A stretch of 17,593 nt of DNA from a virus, in UHGV virus genome UHGV-1834291; one strand, written 5' to 3'. The translations under genes and the position numbers were made by a program. Shown here piece after piece: positions 7,910 to 13,516 of the stretch. Below the pieces are notes generated by a model, which was given only the letters and a program-made list of their open reading frames with translations, was not told the DNA's origin and ran no database searches. How positions within the stretch are numbered: the first letter of the stretch is position 1; every line of letters begins with the position of its first letter.

Positions 7910-7953
7910 TCCCGCATTTCGGCGGGAATGATGACCATGACTGTTAAAGAGCG
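7910..7953 (-). promoter_or_regulatory. nutR: boxA plus boxB hairpin
   Basis: Minus strand cgctctttaaca (boxA, plus 7942-7953) then 13 nt then tcccgccgaaatgcggga (boxB hairpin, plus 7910-7927); lies between cro stop and cII start. Confidence 0.8.
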
Positions 7954-8183: not shown

Positions 8184-8254
8184 AGAATACTACAGGTATT
8201 CAAAGCAATCAATACTCAGGGTATTTTTAGTTTAAGTACCTTAGCTATTAGAAT
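8184..8254. promoter_or_regulatory. Right operator region: OR1, OR2, OR3 with divergent PR and PRM
   Basis: 17-bp palindromic sites gaatactacaggtattc (8185-8201), caatactcagggtattt (8210-8226), weaker aagtaccttagctatta (8234-8250), centres 24-25 bp apart. PR (minus) TTGATT-17-TATTCT overlaps OR2/OR1; PRM (plus) weak -35 and TAGAAT -10 at 8249-8254, cI ATG at 8261 suggests a leaderless mRNA. Confidence 0.75.
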
Positions 8255-8260
8255 TAAGCT

Positions 8261-8977
8261 ATGGAAAATAAAAAATCACTGACGACAGAACAGCTCGAAG
8301 ACGCTAAGCGGCTTAAGGCTTTGTATGAGTCAAAAAAGAAAGAATTGGGAATAACCCAATACTCAATCGCTGATGAACTGGGTATCACCCAAGGAGCGGT
8401 AGGGCATTATCTTAATGGCAGAAACGCGCTAAACGTTGAGGTCGCATCTGGTTTTGCACGTTTGTTGCAAGTCTCAATTGCTGATTTTAGCCAGTCAATT
8501 GCTGCCAAGGTTGCAGAACAGGCAGAAAGCCTTAAGAGCGATGCCAACGTAAGGTATGCAGGGGAATACAGAGCAGGAAAGAGGTATCCGGTGTTAAGCA
8601 GTATCCAGGCTGGCTCGTGGTGTGAAGCATGCGAACCATACACCATTAAAGACATAGATGTTTGGCTTGAGTCTGACGCGCATATTCAAGGTAATGCGTT
8701 CTGGCTTAAAGTGGAAGGTGATTCAATGACGGCACCGGTTGGGTTAAGCATTCCAGAGGGAACATTCGTTCTTTTCGATACCGGAAGGGAGGCGATCAAC
8801 GGCAGCTTGGTCATAGCAAAACTTTCTGACTCTAACGAAGCAACATTCAAGAAGCTGATAATCGACGGCGGAAATAAATACCTCAAGGGACTTAATCCTG
8901 CATGGCCTCTCGTGCCAATCAATGGAAACTGCAAGATTATAGGCGTTGCAATTGAGACAAAACTAAGGCTGGTTTGA
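8261..8977 (+). CDS. cI: CI-type prophage repressor (HTH_XRE N-domain, S24 LexA-like autopeptidase C-domain)
   Basis: 238 aa; HTH ITQYSIADELGITQGAVGHYLNG; C-domain with catalytic Ser (GDSM) and Lys (FKKL) and an Ala-Gly candidate cleavage site; divergent from cro across the operator region. Confidence 0.9.
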   Translation: MENKKSLTTEQLEDAKRLKALYESKKKELGITQYSIADELGITQGAVGHYLNGRNALNVEVASGFARLLQVSIADFSQSIAAKVAEQAESLKSDANVRYAGEYRAGKRYPVLSSIQAGSWCEACEPYTIKDIDVWLESDAHIQGNAFWLKVEGDSMTAPVGLSIPEGTFVLFDTGREAINGSLVIAKLSDSNEATFKKLIIDGGNKYLKGLNPAWPLVPINGNCKIIGVAIETKLRLV

Positions 8978-8994
8978 TCACGCAAGGGGCGATT

Positions 8995-9363
8995 ATGGTT
9001 GGAACCGCTATAGCAAGCTTTTTTGGGATGTTGGCAATCTCGACAATTTACGGCTTAGCGCATGCTTTTATTGCGAAATCTCTATCAGAAAAAATAAGCC
9101 AGGCTTGGGCGCATAGATCAGCTCGTTTCATGATTCTGGTGATCATAGCAATACAAGGGATATCTGCATTTATCCTCTATGGATCAAGCTTATACCTATT
9201 GTATCAAGGCGCGACATTTACGCCTTACACCAGTGATTACGGAACTCTATACGATGGTAGTGAAGACATCACTGTGGCTTGGATCGTCTTTGGTTTATCT
9301 ATGGCCGTGTCTGTTGTAGCAGACATCATTAAGGTAATTCTCGTCTTAACCTTCGCTGACTAA
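8995..9363 (+). CDS. Small membrane protein (122 aa, three predicted TM helices) directly downstream of cI; function unknown
   Basis: ATG 8995 with RBS AAGGGG 6 nt upstream, 18 nt after cI stop; MVGTAIASFFGMLAISTIYGLAHAFIAK...; three long hydrophobic stretches; occupies the rexAB-equivalent slot between cI and OL. Confidence 0.6.
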   Translation: MVGTAIASFFGMLAISTIYGLAHAFIAKSLSEKISQAWAHRSARFMILVIIAIQGISAFILYGSSLYLLYQGATFTPYTSDYGTLYDGSEDITVAWIVFGLSMAVSVVADIIKVILVLTFAD

Positions 9364-9448: not shown

Positions 9449-9536
9449 AAATATCCTTTGTATTCATTTGCTTATCATTATTTCACCAAAAATAAATACC
9501 TTGGGTATTTACACAATAAAATACCTACAGTATTCT
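9449..9536. promoter_or_regulatory. Left operator region: OL1-OL3 with PL
   Basis: Sites aaatacctacagtattc (9519-9535), aaataccttgggtattt (9494-9510), aaatatcctttgtattc (9449-9465), same AATAC-N5-GTATT family as OR; PL TTTACA (9508-9513)-17-TATTCT (9531-9536) reading toward N. Confidence 0.7.
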
Positions 9537-9581: not shown

Positions 9582-9623
9582 GGCTCTTTAACATTGATGG
9601 GATTGTCCCGCCGAAATGCGGGA
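9582..9623 (+). promoter_or_regulatory. nutL: boxA plus boxB hairpin
   Basis: ggctctttaaca (9582-9593), 12 nt, then tcccgccgaaatgcggga (9606-9623); boxB identical to the nutR copy. Confidence 0.8.
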
Positions 9624-9730: not shown

Positions 9731-10003
9731 ATGACAGTAGTCATTACATATCTGGCTGACGATAACGCCAGAAATCGCCGCAGAGCACGCAGACAGGCTC
9801 AACGTGAACAGGCAATGCAAGAGCAGCGACTGGCGCGAAAAATTGCGCTAAAGCTCTCTGGTTGCGTCAGAGCAGATAAAGCAGCATCACTCGGAAGCCT
9901 TCGCTGCAAGAAGGCAGATGAATGCAATGGAAGTATTTGCCTGCCAAACGTAGCTATTTACGCGGCAGGCTACCGGAAATCAAAACAACTGACAGCGAGG
10001 TAA
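9731..10003 (+). CDS. N: N-type antitermination protein (arginine-rich motif; P22 gp24-like C-terminus)
   Basis: 90 aa; N-terminal Arg-rich motif DNARNRRRARRQAQREQ; C-terminal AAGYRKSKQLTAR resembles the P22 gene 24 C-terminus as recalled; first gene after PL/nutL; RBS GGAGG. Confidence 0.8.
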   Translation: MTVVITYLADDNARNRRRARRQAQREQAMQEQRLARKIALKLSGCVRADKAASLGSLRCKKADECNGSICLPNVAIYAAGYRKSKQLTAR

Positions 10004-10006
10004 GTG

Positions 10007-10231
10007 ATGAATCAGACATACATTCCATCATGCTTGAGAAATCTGCCAAAGCAGAAAGCAAAGCCCCGCAAGCAAGCCATAAAGGACGCTAAGGCAGATG
10101 TTATTGATCAAGCAATACAATTGCTCAGGGAGGAGTTAAGAAGTGGCAAGCTCGAAGGAATGATGATGTCCTATCAGCGCGGATATCTATCGGCGATTAG
10201 TAAGTTGGAAGTATTGAAGAGTGAATTATGA
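10007..10231 (+). CDS. Hypothetical protein, 74 aa, basic N-terminus
   Basis: ATG 10007 (GTG 10004 possible) 3 nt after N stop, RBS GAGG; MNQTYIPSCLRNLPKQKAKPRKQAIKDAKADVIDQAIQLLREELRSGK...; no recognised motif. Confidence 0.45.
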   Translation: MNQTYIPSCLRNLPKQKAKPRKQAIKDAKADVIDQAIQLLREELRSGKLEGMMMSYQRGYLSAISKLEVLKSEL

Positions 10232-10288
10232 ACTATCTGGAATTTCCGGATGGTTCATTGTTTTGGCAGCAAGCCACAGAGGTGATAT

Positions 10289-10375
10289 ATGGAAGAAGAA
10301 TTTGAAGAGTTCGAAGAGCATCCGCAGGATGAGATGGAACAATACCAGGACTATCCGTATGACTACGACTATTGA
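10289..10375 (+). CDS. Candidate 28-aa highly acidic/aromatic peptide overlapping the ral start
   Basis: ATG 10289, MEEEFEEFEEHPQDEMEQYQDYPYDYDY, stop 10373-10375; 17-nt overlap with ral in another frame; could be non-coding. Confidence 0.3.
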   Translation: MEEEFEEFEEHPQDEMEQYQDYPYDYDY

Positions 10376-10559
10376 TAAGAATCAATGGTGTGGACAATTC
10401 AAGCGATGCAATGGATGCAAGCTGCAATCGGAATGCATGGTTAAGCCTGAAGAAATGTTTCCTGTAATGGAAGATGGGAAATATGTCGATAAATGGGCAA
10501 TACGAACGACGGCAATGATTGCCAGAGAACTTGGTAAACTGAACAACAAGGCTGCCTGA
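10359..10559 (+). CDS. ral: Ral restriction-alleviation protein
   Basis: Trimmed to ATG 10359: MTTTIDKNQWCGQFKRCNGCKLQSECMVKPEEMFPVMEDGKYVDKWAIRTTAMIARELGKLNNKAA (66 aa), near-identical to lambda Ral from memory. Confidence 0.9.
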   Translation: MTTTIDKNQWCGQFKRCNGCKLQSECMVKPEEMFPVMEDGKYVDKWAIRTTAMIARELGKLNNKAA

Positions 10560-10582
10560 TGGTGGCCTTTATTTTCTTATTT
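10548..10582 (+). terminator. Candidate intrinsic terminator immediately after ral
   Basis: aaggctgcc / ggtggcctt 9-bp stem (two G-U) with tgat loop containing the ral stop codon, followed by tattttcttattt. Confidence 0.5.
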
Positions 10583-10595
10583 GAGAGGAATTAAT

Positions 10596-11219
10596 ATGTC
10601 ATCAATCCGCTTAACTACGAGAATGAAAGAGGAAATCGCTCGTAACGCTTTAATTAAGTCTGGGGTTTTCACTGAGCTTGAAGAAGTAACAAAGTTAAAG
10701 AACCAGCTTGCACTTGACGCCAGAGTTATTGCGTTTGGCGGTAAAAAGAAAACTGAGGAAGTGGATCAGTTATCATCCAAGTTGGTAGCTATAAGTGAAG
10801 AACTTGGAAAGATGGGATGTTCATTTTACTCATACGATTTTCGTTCTACTTCAATTTATCTGACTGTATCTGGCAGAAGGGTTGGATGGCATTCATATGG
10901 AAAAGACGGCAACGGCGAAGATATATTGCTCCCTACTCCGACCAGAGATAAATGCATGTTTGACGCAGAACACGAAATAACAAAAAGGTTTGATGAAATC
11001 TGCGCATTGCAACAAAAACTTGAAGTCAAGAAAAAGGATATCGAATCAAATGTATGGGCTGCTTTGAACTCAGTCACAACAGTTAAGCGACTCATTGAAG
11101 TTTGGCCTGAAAGCAAAGAATTGCTACCAAAAGAAGCAGATAAAGCAAGTACAGCACTTCCTGCTTTACGGGTAGAGGATTTGAATAAGATGATTGGACT
11201 TCCTTCCGAGGCCGCATAG
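10596..11219 (+). CDS. Hypothetical soluble protein, 207 aa; unknown function
   Basis: ATG 10596 with RBS GAGAGGA; MSSIRLTTRMKEEIARNALIKSGVFTELEEVTKLKNQLALD...; no TM segments or recognised catalytic motif; bracketed by terminators; occupies the slot where lambda/P22 carry sieB. Confidence 0.6.
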   Translation: MSSIRLTTRMKEEIARNALIKSGVFTELEEVTKLKNQLALDARVIAFGGKKKTEEVDQLSSKLVAISEELGKMGCSFYSYDFRSTSIYLTVSGRRVGWHSYGKDGNGEDILLPTPTRDKCMFDAEHEITKRFDEICALQQKLEVKKKDIESNVWAALNSVTTVKRLIEVWPESKELLPKEADKASTALPALRVEDLNKMIGLPSEAA

Positions 11220-11235
11220 TCGGCCTTTATTTTTG
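11209..11235 (+). terminator. Intrinsic terminator after the 207-aa gene
   Basis: aggccg / cggcct 6-bp stem with loop catagt (contains the stop codon TAG), followed by tttatttttgg. Confidence 0.7.
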
Positions 11236-11263
11236 GCATAAACAACAGAATAAACACTGCACT

Positions 11264-11291
11264 GTGTATTCATTCCAACGAGTGAATACAC
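11264..11291. repeat. Perfect 9-bp inverted repeat with 10-bp spacer in the inter-terminator region
   Basis: gtgtattca (11264-11272) ... tgaatacac (11283-11291); arms contain GTATTC/GAATAC, the same hexamers as the operator half-sites but in everted order. Confidence 0.5.
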
Positions 11292-11351
11292 GGAGCAATG
11301 TCGCTCGTAACTAAACAGGAGCCGACTTGTTCTGATTATTGGAAATCTTCT

Positions 11352-11380
11352 TTGCCCTCCAGTGTGAGGGCAATTTTTTT
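11352..11380 (+). terminator. Strong intrinsic terminator 12 nt upstream of the 322-aa gene start
   Basis: Perfect 8-bp stem ttgccctc / gagggcaa, 6-nt loop, then T7 (11374-11380); RBS GGAGG and ATG 11393 follow directly. Confidence 0.8.
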
Positions 11381-11392
11381 GACGGAGGATAT

Positions 11393-12361
11393 ATGAGTGA
11401 AGTAACAGATTTAGTTGTTATTGAAAAAGCAAATGCAATGACTGTATTTCAGTCTGCAGACCAGATTGAAGAAATCCTTCAAAAGGTTGAACGTGAAGTT
11501 ATGTCCTTTGTGCCTGATATCACAACGGCAAAGGGCAGAAAGGAGATCGCTTCTCTGGCGTATAAAGTTGCGCAGACGAAAACATATCTCGATGGTCTTG
11601 GCAAAGACCTTGTTGCTGAACTGAAGGAAATTCCAAAGCTAATTGATGCCAACCGCAAGACAGTGCGTGATCGCCTTGATGAGCTGAAAGCCAAGGCGCG
11701 CCAGCCTCTTACTGATTATGAGGAGGAACAGGCACGGATTAAAGCCGAAGAAGAAGCTAAGGCAGCAGCTGAAGCTCTCGCAAAGCAAATTGAGTCTGAC
11801 CATGAAATAGCGATTTTGATGGATCGCGAATTTGACCGCCAAAGAGAAGAGGCAAGACTCAAAGCGGAGCGGGAAAAGCGAGAGCATGAAGAACGCTTAA
11901 AAAGAGAAGCTGAAGAGAGAGCCAGAGCAGAAGCCGAAGCAAAGGCAAAAGCCGAAATTGAAGCAGCAGCAAGGCGAGAAGCAGAAGCTAAGGCCGCAGC
12001 GGAACGTGCAGAGCGTGAACGCATTGAAGCCGAGCAACGAGCACAGCGCGAAGCAAAAGAGGCAGCAGAACGAGCTGAAAGAGAAAAGCAGGCGGCAATT
12101 GAAGCAGAACGCCGAAAAGCACAGGAGGAGGCTGAACGAATCCGGCGCGAGGCTGAAGCAAAAGAGCAAGCCAGAATAGCAGAAGAAAAAAGAATCAAGG
12201 AAGAAGAAGAGCGTAGAGCAAAGGATAAAGCTCACCGGAAAGAAGTAAATAACAAAATACTTGCTGACCTTATCAAGGTTGGCGCATCAGAAGATGTTGC
12301 TAAAAATATCATAACAGCTATCGTAAAAGGCGAAGTATTCGCAACAAAAATAACCTACTAA
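11393..12361 (+). CDS. Hypothetical protein, 322 aa, with ~160-aa E/R/K/A-rich predicted single alpha-helix / coiled-coil domain
   Basis: ATG 11393 after RBS GGAGG; globular N-terminal ~120 aa (MSEVTDLVVIEKANAMTVFQSADQIEE...), then repeats of EAEAKAKAEIEAAARREAEAKAAAERAERE..., short C-terminal domain ...IITAIVKGEVFATKITY. Confidence 0.7.
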   Translation: MSEVTDLVVIEKANAMTVFQSADQIEEILQKVEREVMSFVPDITTAKGRKEIASLAYKVAQTKTYLDGLGKDLVAELKEIPKLIDANRKTVRDRLDELKAKARQPLTDYEEEQARIKAEEEAKAAAEALAKQIESDHEIAILMDREFDRQREEARLKAEREKREHEERLKREAEERARAEAEAKAKAEIEAAARREAEAKAAAERAERERIEAEQRAQREAKEAAERAEREKQAAIEAERRKAQEEAERIRREAEAKEQARIAEEKRIKEEEERRAKDKAHRKEVNNKILADLIKVGASEDVAKNIITAIVKGEVFATKITY

Positions 12362-12385
12362 TAAAACCAACATAAGGAACCACCC

Positions 12386-12517
12386 ATGATTTACGCAATC
12401 GCGGGAGGCGCTCGCATGGGTGCCTTCCAATTAAATGAATCTTTACTTGAACGAATCACCCGTAAATTACGTGACGGATGGAAAAGAGTTGAGATCTTAT
12501 TATGCGCAATGAAATAG
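12386..12517 (+). CDS. cIII: CIII (FtsH inhibitor)
   Basis: Not in ORF track (43 aa). MIYAIAGGARMGAFQLNESLLERITRKLRDGWKRVEILLCAMK; core SLLERITRKLRDGWKR matches lambda CIII as recalled; RBS AAGGAA. Confidence 0.8.
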   Translation: MIYAIAGGARMGAFQLNESLLERITRKLRDGWKRVEILLCAMK

Positions 12518-12729: not shown

Positions 12730-12900
12730 ATGTCACTTGCAACCACAGTGAAGGAGAGCAAGTTACAGAGACGCATGTACACGCAGAAAGCTCTCTGGTA
12801 TCGCCATAATGGTGACCGCGAAGGAATGCGGGTATGCCTTAATTTGTCCCGAGTTGAAGTATTAAATCAGCGTTATTTCCTTGGGCCGTGTCCATTCTGA
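12730..12900 (+). CDS. Small ORF (56 aa) immediately upstream of erf (P22 arf position)
   Basis: ATG 12730 with strong RBS AAGGAGA 5 nt upstream; MSLATTVKESKLQRRMYTQKALWYRHNGDREGMRVCLNLSRVEVLNQRYFLGPCPF; ends 10 nt before erf ATG. Confidence 0.35.
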   Translation: MSLATTVKESKLQRRMYTQKALWYRHNGDREGMRVCLNLSRVEVLNQRYFLGPCPF

Positions 12901-12910
12901 GAACAATCAT

Positions 12911-13516
12911 ATGAGCAAAGAATTTTACGCAAGACTGGCAGCTATTCAGGAGAATCTGAACGCGCCAAAGAATCAGTACAACTCATTCGGCAAATATAAA
13001 TACAGAAGCTGCGAAGACATTCTTGAAGGCGTTAAGCCGTTACTGAATGGCCTGTTTTTATCAATCAGCGATGAAGTTGTGTTGATTGGTGATCGGTATT
13101 ACGTGAAAGCCACAGCAACTATTACCGATGGCGAAAACAGTCATACAGCAATCGCTCTTGCACGAGAGGAAGAAAGCAAGAAAGGAATGGATTCTGCACA
13201 AGTTACGGGAGCTACAAGCTCTTATGCACGCAAGTATTGCCTCAATGGTTTGTTCGGCATTGATGATGCGAAAGATGCAGATACAGACGAGCATAAACAT
13301 CAGCAGAACGCAGCAGCAAAGCAATCAAAACCATCACCTACACCTGAACAGGTTCTAAAAGCATTCACTGACGCAGCAATGCAGAAAAACACCGTAGAAG
13401 AGCTTAAACAGGCGTTCGCCAAAGCGTGGAAGATGCTCGAAGGCACACCGGAGCAGCACAAAGCGCAGGACGTTTACAACATCAGACGAGATGAATTAGA
13501 AGGAGCGGCTGCTTAA
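12911..13516 (+). CDS. erf: Erf single-strand annealing recombinase (P22 Erf-like)
   Basis: Trimmed to ATG 12911: MSKEFYARLAAIQENLNAPKNQYNSFGKYKYRSCEDILEGVKPLLNGLFLSISDEVVLIGDRYYVKATATITDGENSH..., matching the P22 Erf N-terminal domain from memory; C-terminal domain divergent. Confidence 0.9.
   Translation: MSKEFYARLAAIQENLNAPKNQYNSFGKYKYRSCEDILEGVKPLLNGLFLSISDEVVLIGDRYYVKATATITDGENSHTAIALAREEESKKGMDSAQVTGATSSYARKYCLNGLFGIDDAKDADTDEHKHQQNAAAKQSKPSPTPEQVLKAFTDAAMQKNTVEELKQAFAKAWKMLEGTPEQHKAQDVYNIRRDELEGAAA

Follow-up and report, generated by a model that had tools for sequence, protein, structure and literature searches.

A probable orthologue of the lambda small RNA PreS (LPR1) downstream of ral in a lambdoid phage with non-lambda operators

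The interval at positions 11236-11392 of a 17,593-nucleotide stretch of viral DNA (UHGV virus genome UHGV-1834291; this whole stretch is referred to below as the window) is very probably the cassette that encodes the small RNA PreS (LPR1) in the early-left (pL) operon of a lambdoid phage. The locus as such has already been described, as the PreS small RNA together with the tL2a terminator, and is found here in a phage with operators other than those of lambda. Judged by sequence homology, positions 11293-11380 on the + strand encode an 88-nt orthologue of lambda PreS/LPR1, with 86 of the 88 positions identical, so that a preliminary description of this DNA, made from the letters alone, was correct where it offered a small RNA locus as one of its readings. 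The only detail that goes, modestly, beyond published work is a hairpin, conserved in structure, at the 5' boundary of the small RNA.

In lambda, the Hfq-dependent small RNA LPR1, renamed PreS, is encoded between ea10 and ral and has its 3' end at tL2a (PMC12197685; 10.1101/2024.10.31.621285). The work is that of Silverman, Nashef, Bruner, Noy and Melamed (bioRxiv 10.1101/2024.10.31.621285, 2024; PMID 41418758 according to the reference list of a review). PreS runs on northern blots as bands of ~88 and ~68 nt, the RNA being processed further to about 68 nt, and the 5' end was derived from northern sizes and read coverage, not from RACE (10.1101/2024.10.31.621285). It is detected by 10 min after induction, in the lytic cycle only, and is absent in lysogens; it is enriched with Hfq, and RIL-seq connects it to dozens of host targets (10.1101/2024.10.31.621285). 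It opens a structure over the ribosome binding site (RBS) of dnaN, by which dnaN translation goes up, and it represses alaS, both effects being confirmed by compensatory mutations, while deletion of its seed reduces both the replication of phage DNA and the spontaneous release of phage (10.1101/2024.10.31.621285). The upstream hairpin is not mentioned in this preprint and the formation of the 5' end is not addressed in it (10.1101/2024.10.31.621285), and the literature on tL2a, on RNase III sites between ral and ea10 and on Pas or other prophage small RNAs yielded nothing further on the interval.

The ends of PreS in the window, as well as the positions of the seed deletion and of the M1 and M2 mutations, were placed from the cloning and deletion primers of the lambda authors (P810, P1103, P1104 and P969). 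The 5' end reads GAGCAATGTCGCTCGTAACT here and the lambda +1 (GAGCAATGTCGC...) falls on position 11293; the lambda 3' end, transferred to the window, is the T-run that extends to 11380. Comparison over the full length leaves 2 of the 88 positions different from lambda: an A for G at 11373, which makes one pair of the terminator stem U-A where lambda has U-G, and a T where lambda has an A, which lengthens the T-run to seven. The stem thus closes with U-A followed by T7 here, and with U-G followed by T6A in lambda. By BLAST, the interval is 98.2% identical over 163 nt to the ral-ea10 spacer of lambda (NC_001416, 33925-34087), and a search of phage records with 11200-11395 returned 331 records, of which nearly all were at least 95% identical. 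The 88-nt RNA is predicted to fold with -29.2 kcal/mol (z = -3.8). Homologues were collected as 120 IMG/VR loci retrieved with the seed, giving 73 distinct sequences in the alignment. In this alignment 11 of the 13 pairs of stem-loop 1 and all four pairs of stem-loop 2 never vary; these internal helices are without covariation support because the body of PreS hardly varies in any homologue.

Rfam at gathering thresholds gave 0 hits over the whole window, a permissive Rfam scan of 11150-11450 gave sub-threshold noise only (the best, RyhB, at 19.1 bits against a cut-off of 55), and Rfam 15 holds no family for the PreS block. A sigma-70 promoter scan of 10500-12500 found none near the interval. 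A promoter of its own at 11293 was considered and rejected: the best -35/-10 match found by eye has 3 of 6 positions in each hexamer and is not kept in the class of homologues with a variant hairpin described below. The absence of a promoter at 11293 agrees with the absence of LPR1 in lambda lysogens.

The surroundings resemble those of lambda PreS as well: the cassette lies on the same strand and occupies the same position in the pL operon, after ral and before the cIII side. The + strand of the window is the leftward (pL) direction of a lambdoid phage, and carries in order cI (8261-8977), N (9731-10003), ral (10221-10559), a gene for an Nmad5-domain protein (212-aa ORF, 10581-11219), PreS, a gene-33-like gene, cIII (12386-12517) and erf (12881-13516), where cI, N, Ral, the Nmad5 domain, CIII and Erf were assigned by Pfam. 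The gene-33-like gene, which lies outside the small RNA, encodes 322 aa related to Sf6 gene 33 (phrog_1376) and occupies 11384-12361 on the + strand together with its RBS (GGAGGA, 11384-11389; ATG at 11393). A nutL boxA and boxB are found at 9583-9623 (rrn-like boxA 9583-9593, boxB 9606-9623), and the boxB hairpin of nutR, on the - strand at 7910-7927, is identical to that of nutL. The present phage departs from lambda in its immunity operators, in the Nmad5-domain gene inserted between ral and the cassette, and in a downstream gene that is Sf6 gene 33-like and not ea10. Shared with lambda are the tL2a-type terminator with its U-tail, the seed including the M1 and M2 nucleotides, and the predicted pairing with dnaN.

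The putative seed region (11328-11354, + strand) was delimited by the primer sequences, sequence checks and complementarity to dnaN. The segment removed in the lambda lpr1 seed deletion (TGTTCTGATTATTGGAA) corresponds to 11328-11344 and is intact in the window, as are the M1 site directed at dnaN (CTG, 11332-11334) and the M2 site directed at alaS (GAA, 11342-11344). Two perfect blocks are complementary to dnaN of E. coli K-12, one of 11 nt (11328-11338 with dnaN -27 to -17) and one of 12 nt (11343-11354 with dnaN -47 to -36). The predicted duplex of 11323-11351 with -45 to -11 of dnaN, taken from E. coli K-12 and thus maybe not that of the host, reaches -27.7 kcal/mol; shuffles gave -14.6 +/- 3.0 kcal/mol for the seed region, with 0 of 1000 as good. 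A prediction with full-length PreS over-extended the duplex and discriminated weakly (4 of 500 shuffles as good), and was replaced by this seed-restricted run. All aligned positions from 11320 to 11355 are invariant among the 73 distinct homologue sequences, an invariance that is partly circular because the sample was retrieved with the seed as search pattern, the 22 nt used (11329-11350) being invariant by selection. When genome contigs were scanned with an anchor outside the seed, most of what came back was lambda control DNA contaminating unrelated assemblies, next to four chance 18-mers, so that little independent information on seed variation was gained.

From these likenesses we infer that PreS serves the same function in the present phage as in lambda. 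After induction or infection, pL transcription would run through N, ral and the inserted Nmad5-domain gene into the interval, and an 88-nt RNA (11293-11380) with its 3' end at the tL2a-type terminator would be produced. Its single-stranded seed (11328-11354) would pair with host mRNAs on Hfq, as in lambda; opening of the structure that masks the dnaN RBS would then raise beta-clamp synthesis and phage DNA replication, and alaS would be repressed. RNA polymerase modified by N would be expected to read through both terminators of the region, which would allow expression of the 322-aa gene and of cIII, kil and erf. Since tL2a should thus be ignored by N-modified polymerase, PreS may arise partly by termination and partly by processing.

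A comparable arrangement is known from StxS of Stx phages (PMC7547250) and from the small-RNA class in PMC9438474, which are also 3'-end-derived, terminator-ending RNAs from longer operon transcripts that depend on Hfq and act in trans. StxS and PreS both have an intrinsic terminator at their end and both lie inside an antitermination-controlled phage operon. They share no sequence similarity, and StxS originates at the late PR' terminator and is produced by lysogens (PMC7547250), whereas PreS belongs to the early-left operon and to the lytic cycle only.

The two terminators that frame the interval are located where the preliminary description had placed them. The second one, which forms the 3' hairpin and U-tail of PreS, consists of 8 perfect pairs and T7 at 11352-11380 on the + strand, as confirmed by fold and scan: the stem TTGCCCTC/GAGGGCAA joins 11352-11359 to 11366-11373 around a 6-nt loop and is followed by T7 at 11374-11380. 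It folds with -13.2 kcal/mol (z = -4.3) and is homologous to lambda tL2a, its counterpart in Sf6 being annotated as 'terminator; homology to phage lambda; tL2A'. Compared to lambda tL2a, the version in the window has a longer stem, of 8 bp, and a longer T-run, and otherwise shows no difference of substance. Among the homologues the core GCCCTC/GAGGGC is kept, the variable positions being those of the loop and of the two outer U-A pairs. By its form, this hairpin with U-tail would be a 3' module of the Hfq-binding type.

The upstream one, at 11208-11235 on the + strand, is a terminator-like hairpin followed by TTTATTTTT and was found by scan, fold, a direct repeat and the mEp234 annotation. Its stem (11208-11227) has 7 pairs, 5 of them G-C, and a loop of 6, after which comes the T-rich tract TATTTTTGGC (TATTTTT); it folds with -11.0 kcal/mol (z = -2.1), and the TAG stop of the Nmad5-domain ORF, which ends at 11219, lies within its loop. 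In the mEp234 record both hairpins are annotated as rho-independent terminators. Directly 3' of ral, a further hairpin with T-run (10548-10578, + strand; 9 pairs by scan, and -13.9 kcal/mol with z = -3.6 by fold) carries the TGA stop of ral in its loop and corresponds to the post-ral hairpin of lambda. The 'GGCCTTTATTTT' boundary module is duplicated around the inserted gene, with copy 1 in 10548-10578 and copy 2 in 11208-11235, and includes a 12-nt direct repeat (10564-10575 and 11222-11233). The surrounding 2-kb region holds 6 terminator-like sites, compared to 1.8 +/- 1.5 in shuffles.

The 11352-11380 terminator lies only 12 nt before the start of the 322-aa gene. Such a strong terminator would be tolerable at this place because N-modified polymerase is expected to read through it. 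Its position, together with an ORF of 32 codons that reads through it, had suggested an attenuator or leader-peptide switch, in which translation of the ORF or an alternative fold would control the terminator and hence the 322-aa gene. The ORF itself is as was described (11298-11396 on the + strand, inside PreS from its ATG at 11298), and its TGA (11394-11396) forms an ATGA overlap with the ATG of the downstream gene at 11393. We nevertheless regard a switch of this kind as extremely unlikely. The attenuator reading found no support when folds were checked for alternatives between antiterminator and terminator, as no competing structure appeared: the 250 nt upstream contain no complement of at least 5 nt to either terminator arm, and the mean probability of the terminator pairs stays at ~0.96 whether the RNA is started at 11100, 11200, 11236, 11293 or 11313. 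The leader-peptide reading is likewise unsupported, since neither the length nor the frame nor the C-terminus of the ORF is kept and its Shine-Dalgarno spacing is poor. Among 116 homologues the ORF has between 23 and more than 60 codons and takes its C-terminus from the right flank; insertions or deletions amounting to +2 nt in the loop of the terminator put it out of frame, and the ATGA overlap is confined to the right flank of the window type, one of 10 right-flank types. The GGAG is only 2 nt from the ATG at 11298, and the variant-hairpin class lacks it. Since the block is found in front of unrelated genes, it cannot be a sensor tuned to one gene. Moreover, it is established that read-through in the lambda pL operon is governed by N.

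The same ORF raises the question whether PreS is a dual-function RNA that also encodes a peptide of ~30 aa (MSLVTKQEPTCSDYWKSSLPSS...). The ATG at 11298 is kept in 115 of the 116 homologues, the first 21 codons are nearly invariant, and dual-function phage small RNAs are known, for example IsrK. We hold a peptide to be highly unlikely, as the constraint on the RNA, which is itself nearly invariant, explains the retention of the ATG and of the codons, and at most of the positions where the ORF does vary the amino acid differs (S to N, D, G, K or Y; V to M or A; P to S). Its C-terminus is unconserved and frameshifts are tolerated; next to the poor Shine-Dalgarno spacing, the ATG lies inside a predicted stem. 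The ORF, with its flank-dependent length and C-terminus, is thus probably incidental to PreS.

Between the two terminators, the perfect 9-bp inverted repeat noticed earlier is present, with the arms GTGTATTCA (11264-11272) and TGAATACAC (11283-11291) and a 10-nt spacer. Taken alone, such a repeat is within chance for 17.6 kb: shuffles of the window contained on average 0.91 perfect 9-bp repeats with a loop of 3-12 nt, and 45 of 100 shuffles held at least one. We judge it to be real because the stem extends further at the RNA level, and its conservation adds support. The hairpin, with the repeat at its core, has 14 contiguous pairs including G-U (11262-11275 with 11280-11293) around a 4-nt loop, and extends to 17 pairs with one A/A mismatch (11261/11294) over 11258-11297 on the + strand. 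It folds with -22.8 kcal/mol (z = -7.05), and none of 200 shuffles was as stable. Read on the + strand, the non-Watson-Crick pairs of the 14-bp stem are U-G; as these pairs exist only in + strand RNA, a structure at the RNA level in the pL transcript is favoured.

The arms of this repeat hold GTATTC and GAATAC, the hexamers of the outer parts of the OR/OL dyads, and GTATTC occurs 13 times in the window where 6.8 would be expected, from which a link to the phage operators had been drawn. However, that the repeat (11264-11291) is a DNA binding site of CI or Cro, a remote operator, is close to impossible in our estimate, and the hexamers are best seen as a coincidence, since their order and spacing differ from those of the true operators. 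The latter (8185-8201, 8210-8226, 9496-9512 and 9520-9536) are converging 17-bp dyads of the form AATAC-N7-GTATT (GAATAC-N5-GTATTC and relatives), whereas in the repeat the hexamers are everted and 12 nt apart (GTATTC-N12-GAATAC). Lambda, Sf6 and mEp234 carry the repeat without a single base change. The operators of lambda differ from those of the present phage. Those in the Sf6 record are likewise annotated in another form, ACRAARNNNNRTTGT. The extension of the hairpin needs the U-G pairs of the + strand RNA, and in the variant class an unrelated palindrome without the GTATTC/GAATAC hexamers stands in place of the repeat. The repeat is not an operator.

This rare variant class consists of six distinct sequences, among the 120 loci retrieved with the seed, that carry the hairpin AUAGCAGAUU-UACG-AGUCUGCUAU in exactly the register of the window hairpin, the flanks on either side being conserved (GAATAAGC upstream and GAGCAATG downstream). 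The variant folds with -15.9 kcal/mol (z = -4.2) and forms 11-14 pairs. Over the alignment of 73 sequences, 8 of the 13 hairpin pairs have changed on both sides while 99.1% of the cells remain paired; when the partners were slid by 1-3 columns as a control, pairing fell to 37-47% over the whole tested structure of 38 pairs. A different sequence in the same register with paired changes indicates that structure, not sequence, is conserved in the hairpin. The six variant sequences probably derive from one replacement event and hence represent one strong case and not many independent ones.

In the variant class homology resumes at the PreS +1, and in the window the 3' base of the hairpin overlaps this +1 (11293), a coincidence that is good only to a few nucleotides because the published 5' end comes from northern sizes and read coverage. 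The position suggests that the hairpin marks or creates the 5' boundary of PreS, be it as a processing signal, as a protective stem at the 3' end of the upstream mRNA or as a folding insulator. More specifically, and only tentatively, the hairpin could be a dedicated maturation signal that excises PreS from N-antiterminated pL transcripts, or that protects the upstream mRNA after the cut; hairpin, small RNA and terminator would then make up a self-contained, portable cassette yielding the same RNA in any early-left context, with the block doubling as a homology anchor for swaps of early-left modules. Cleavage by RNase III at 11258-11297 is possible. The enzyme accommodates about 22 bp (PMC6212723), and against a substrate of ~20-22 bp, about two helical turns, the hairpin with its 17 pairs and a mismatch and the variant with 11-14 pairs are on the short side.

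The limits of the conserved block were mapped by ungapped identity over 123 instances. Identity is at least 0.93 in every 10-nt bin of 11259-11368, falls to 0.82 at 11369-11378 and is about 0.3-0.4 from 11379 on; to the left it declines stepwise, to ~0.7 at 11239-11258 and ~0.54 at 11219. Around this block, 111 loci show at least 18 types of left flank and at least 10 types of right flank, in 46 combinations. The 'bsq4; boundary sequence' annotated in Sf6 (GenBank AF547987) maps to 11259-11371, that is, to the block conserved between unrelated flanks; this label denotes an evolutionary pattern and not a function, and the same DNA is now known to encode a small RNA.

These observations could be taken to mean that the block is a recombination linker only, a patch of homology for the exchange of lambdoid modules in which the terminators are passengers and no RNA function is exerted here. 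The sharp edges of homology, the many flank combinations, the Sf6 annotation and the duplication of a second short boundary module around the inserted gene all fit such a role. Yet we consider a mere linker very unlikely. The lambda copy, with its 86 of 88 identical positions, has RNA functions proven by compensatory mutations, and a homology patch would need no paired changes in its hairpin, nor does it fit a terminator in which variation is concentrated in the loop while the stem is kept. A linker role is compatible with that of a small RNA, as a property added to it rather than as its replacement.

Of 5426 complete E. coli genomes, 2237 (41%) carry the PreS block, with up to 6 copies each and roughly 3200 copies in all; copies also occur in Salmonella, Klebsiella and Shigella. 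Only 9 of the 2253 matching records fall below 95% identity. Among the 30 matches listed, none has an annotated feature over the intact block.

A reading of the raw sequence thus picked out a real regulatory RNA locus, one that stands outside Rfam 15 and is unannotated in the listed RefSeq matches, yet occurs in 41% of the complete E. coli genomes. For annotation, this means that the ral-proximal spacer of lambdoid prophages is to be read as PreS with tL2a, and not as an attenuator or a small ORF. The hairpin at the 5' end of the small RNA raises the question how a small RNA is released from an operon whose polymerase ignores terminators.

The operator hexamers GTATTC and GAATAC to which the preliminary description likened the arms of the inverted repeat at 11264-11291 come from the OR and OL positions. 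There, within 8185-8226 and 9496-9536, cI is flanked by four operator-like dyads, each of 17 bp and patterned AATAC-N7-GTATT. Immediately downstream of cI and on the same strand, a 129-aa ORF (8974-9363), of which phrog_6534 is the sole match, occupies the position that rex has in lambda and could be expressed in the lysogen.

Two copies of a boundary module, both within 10548-11235, bracket the gene for the Nmad5-domain protein (PF18757 in Pfam), which probably starts with the ATG at 10596 and ends at 11219. Each copy consists of a hairpin with a stop codon in its loop and TTTATTTT, and a 12-nt direct repeat, GGCCTTTATTTT, is found at 10564-10575 and 11222-11233. Since lambda carries a single such module, directly 3' of ral, whereas this phage has one on either side of the gene, the gene has the look of a cassette that recombination at this module has inserted. 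The 322-aa gene (11393-12361), located 3' of the terminator at 11352-11380, is probably itself mosaic: it has no Pfam match and phrog_1376 matches it over its full length, while PHROGs 17211 and 21365 separately match its N-terminal and C-terminal parts, which fits the note for phage mEp234 that likeness to Sf6 gene 33 is limited to the termini.

Among the retrieved homologues of the block encoding the small RNA PreS, fifteen loci (L125, L126, L128, L129, L132, L133, L136-L140, L142-L144 and L148) lie on contigs whose identity to lambda is 99.8-100% across as much as 500 nt surrounding PreS, in assemblies of Pseudoxanthomonas, Shewanella, Bradyrhizobium, Kitasatospora, Pseudomonas, Neobacillus and other unrelated taxa. 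Three of these contigs measure ~48.4-48.5 kb, two of them at ~1x or ~10x coverage. These contigs represent contamination by lambda control DNA and not natural spread of PreS to these taxa.

A probable nutL (9583-9623) combines a boxA of the rrn type, GCTCTTTAACA, with the boxB hairpin TCCCGCCGAAATGCGGGA, and an identical boxB on the - strand (7910-7927), adjoining the cII side, marks the putative nutR. These elements are consistent with N-dependent read-through of both terminators, at 11208-11235 and 11352-11380. The sRNA body of PreS is identical across the classes of right-flanking DNA. Among the loci of the right-flank group that ranks second in frequency, 'GGGC(C/T)TTTTTATATGCATACC' (L006, L015, L023 and others), the PreS terminator is without the two outer U-A pairs and its T-run is only T5-T6, broken by A; because of these features, terminator strength is predicted to differ between right-flank classes, and possibly the Hfq-binding tail of PreS would differ as well.
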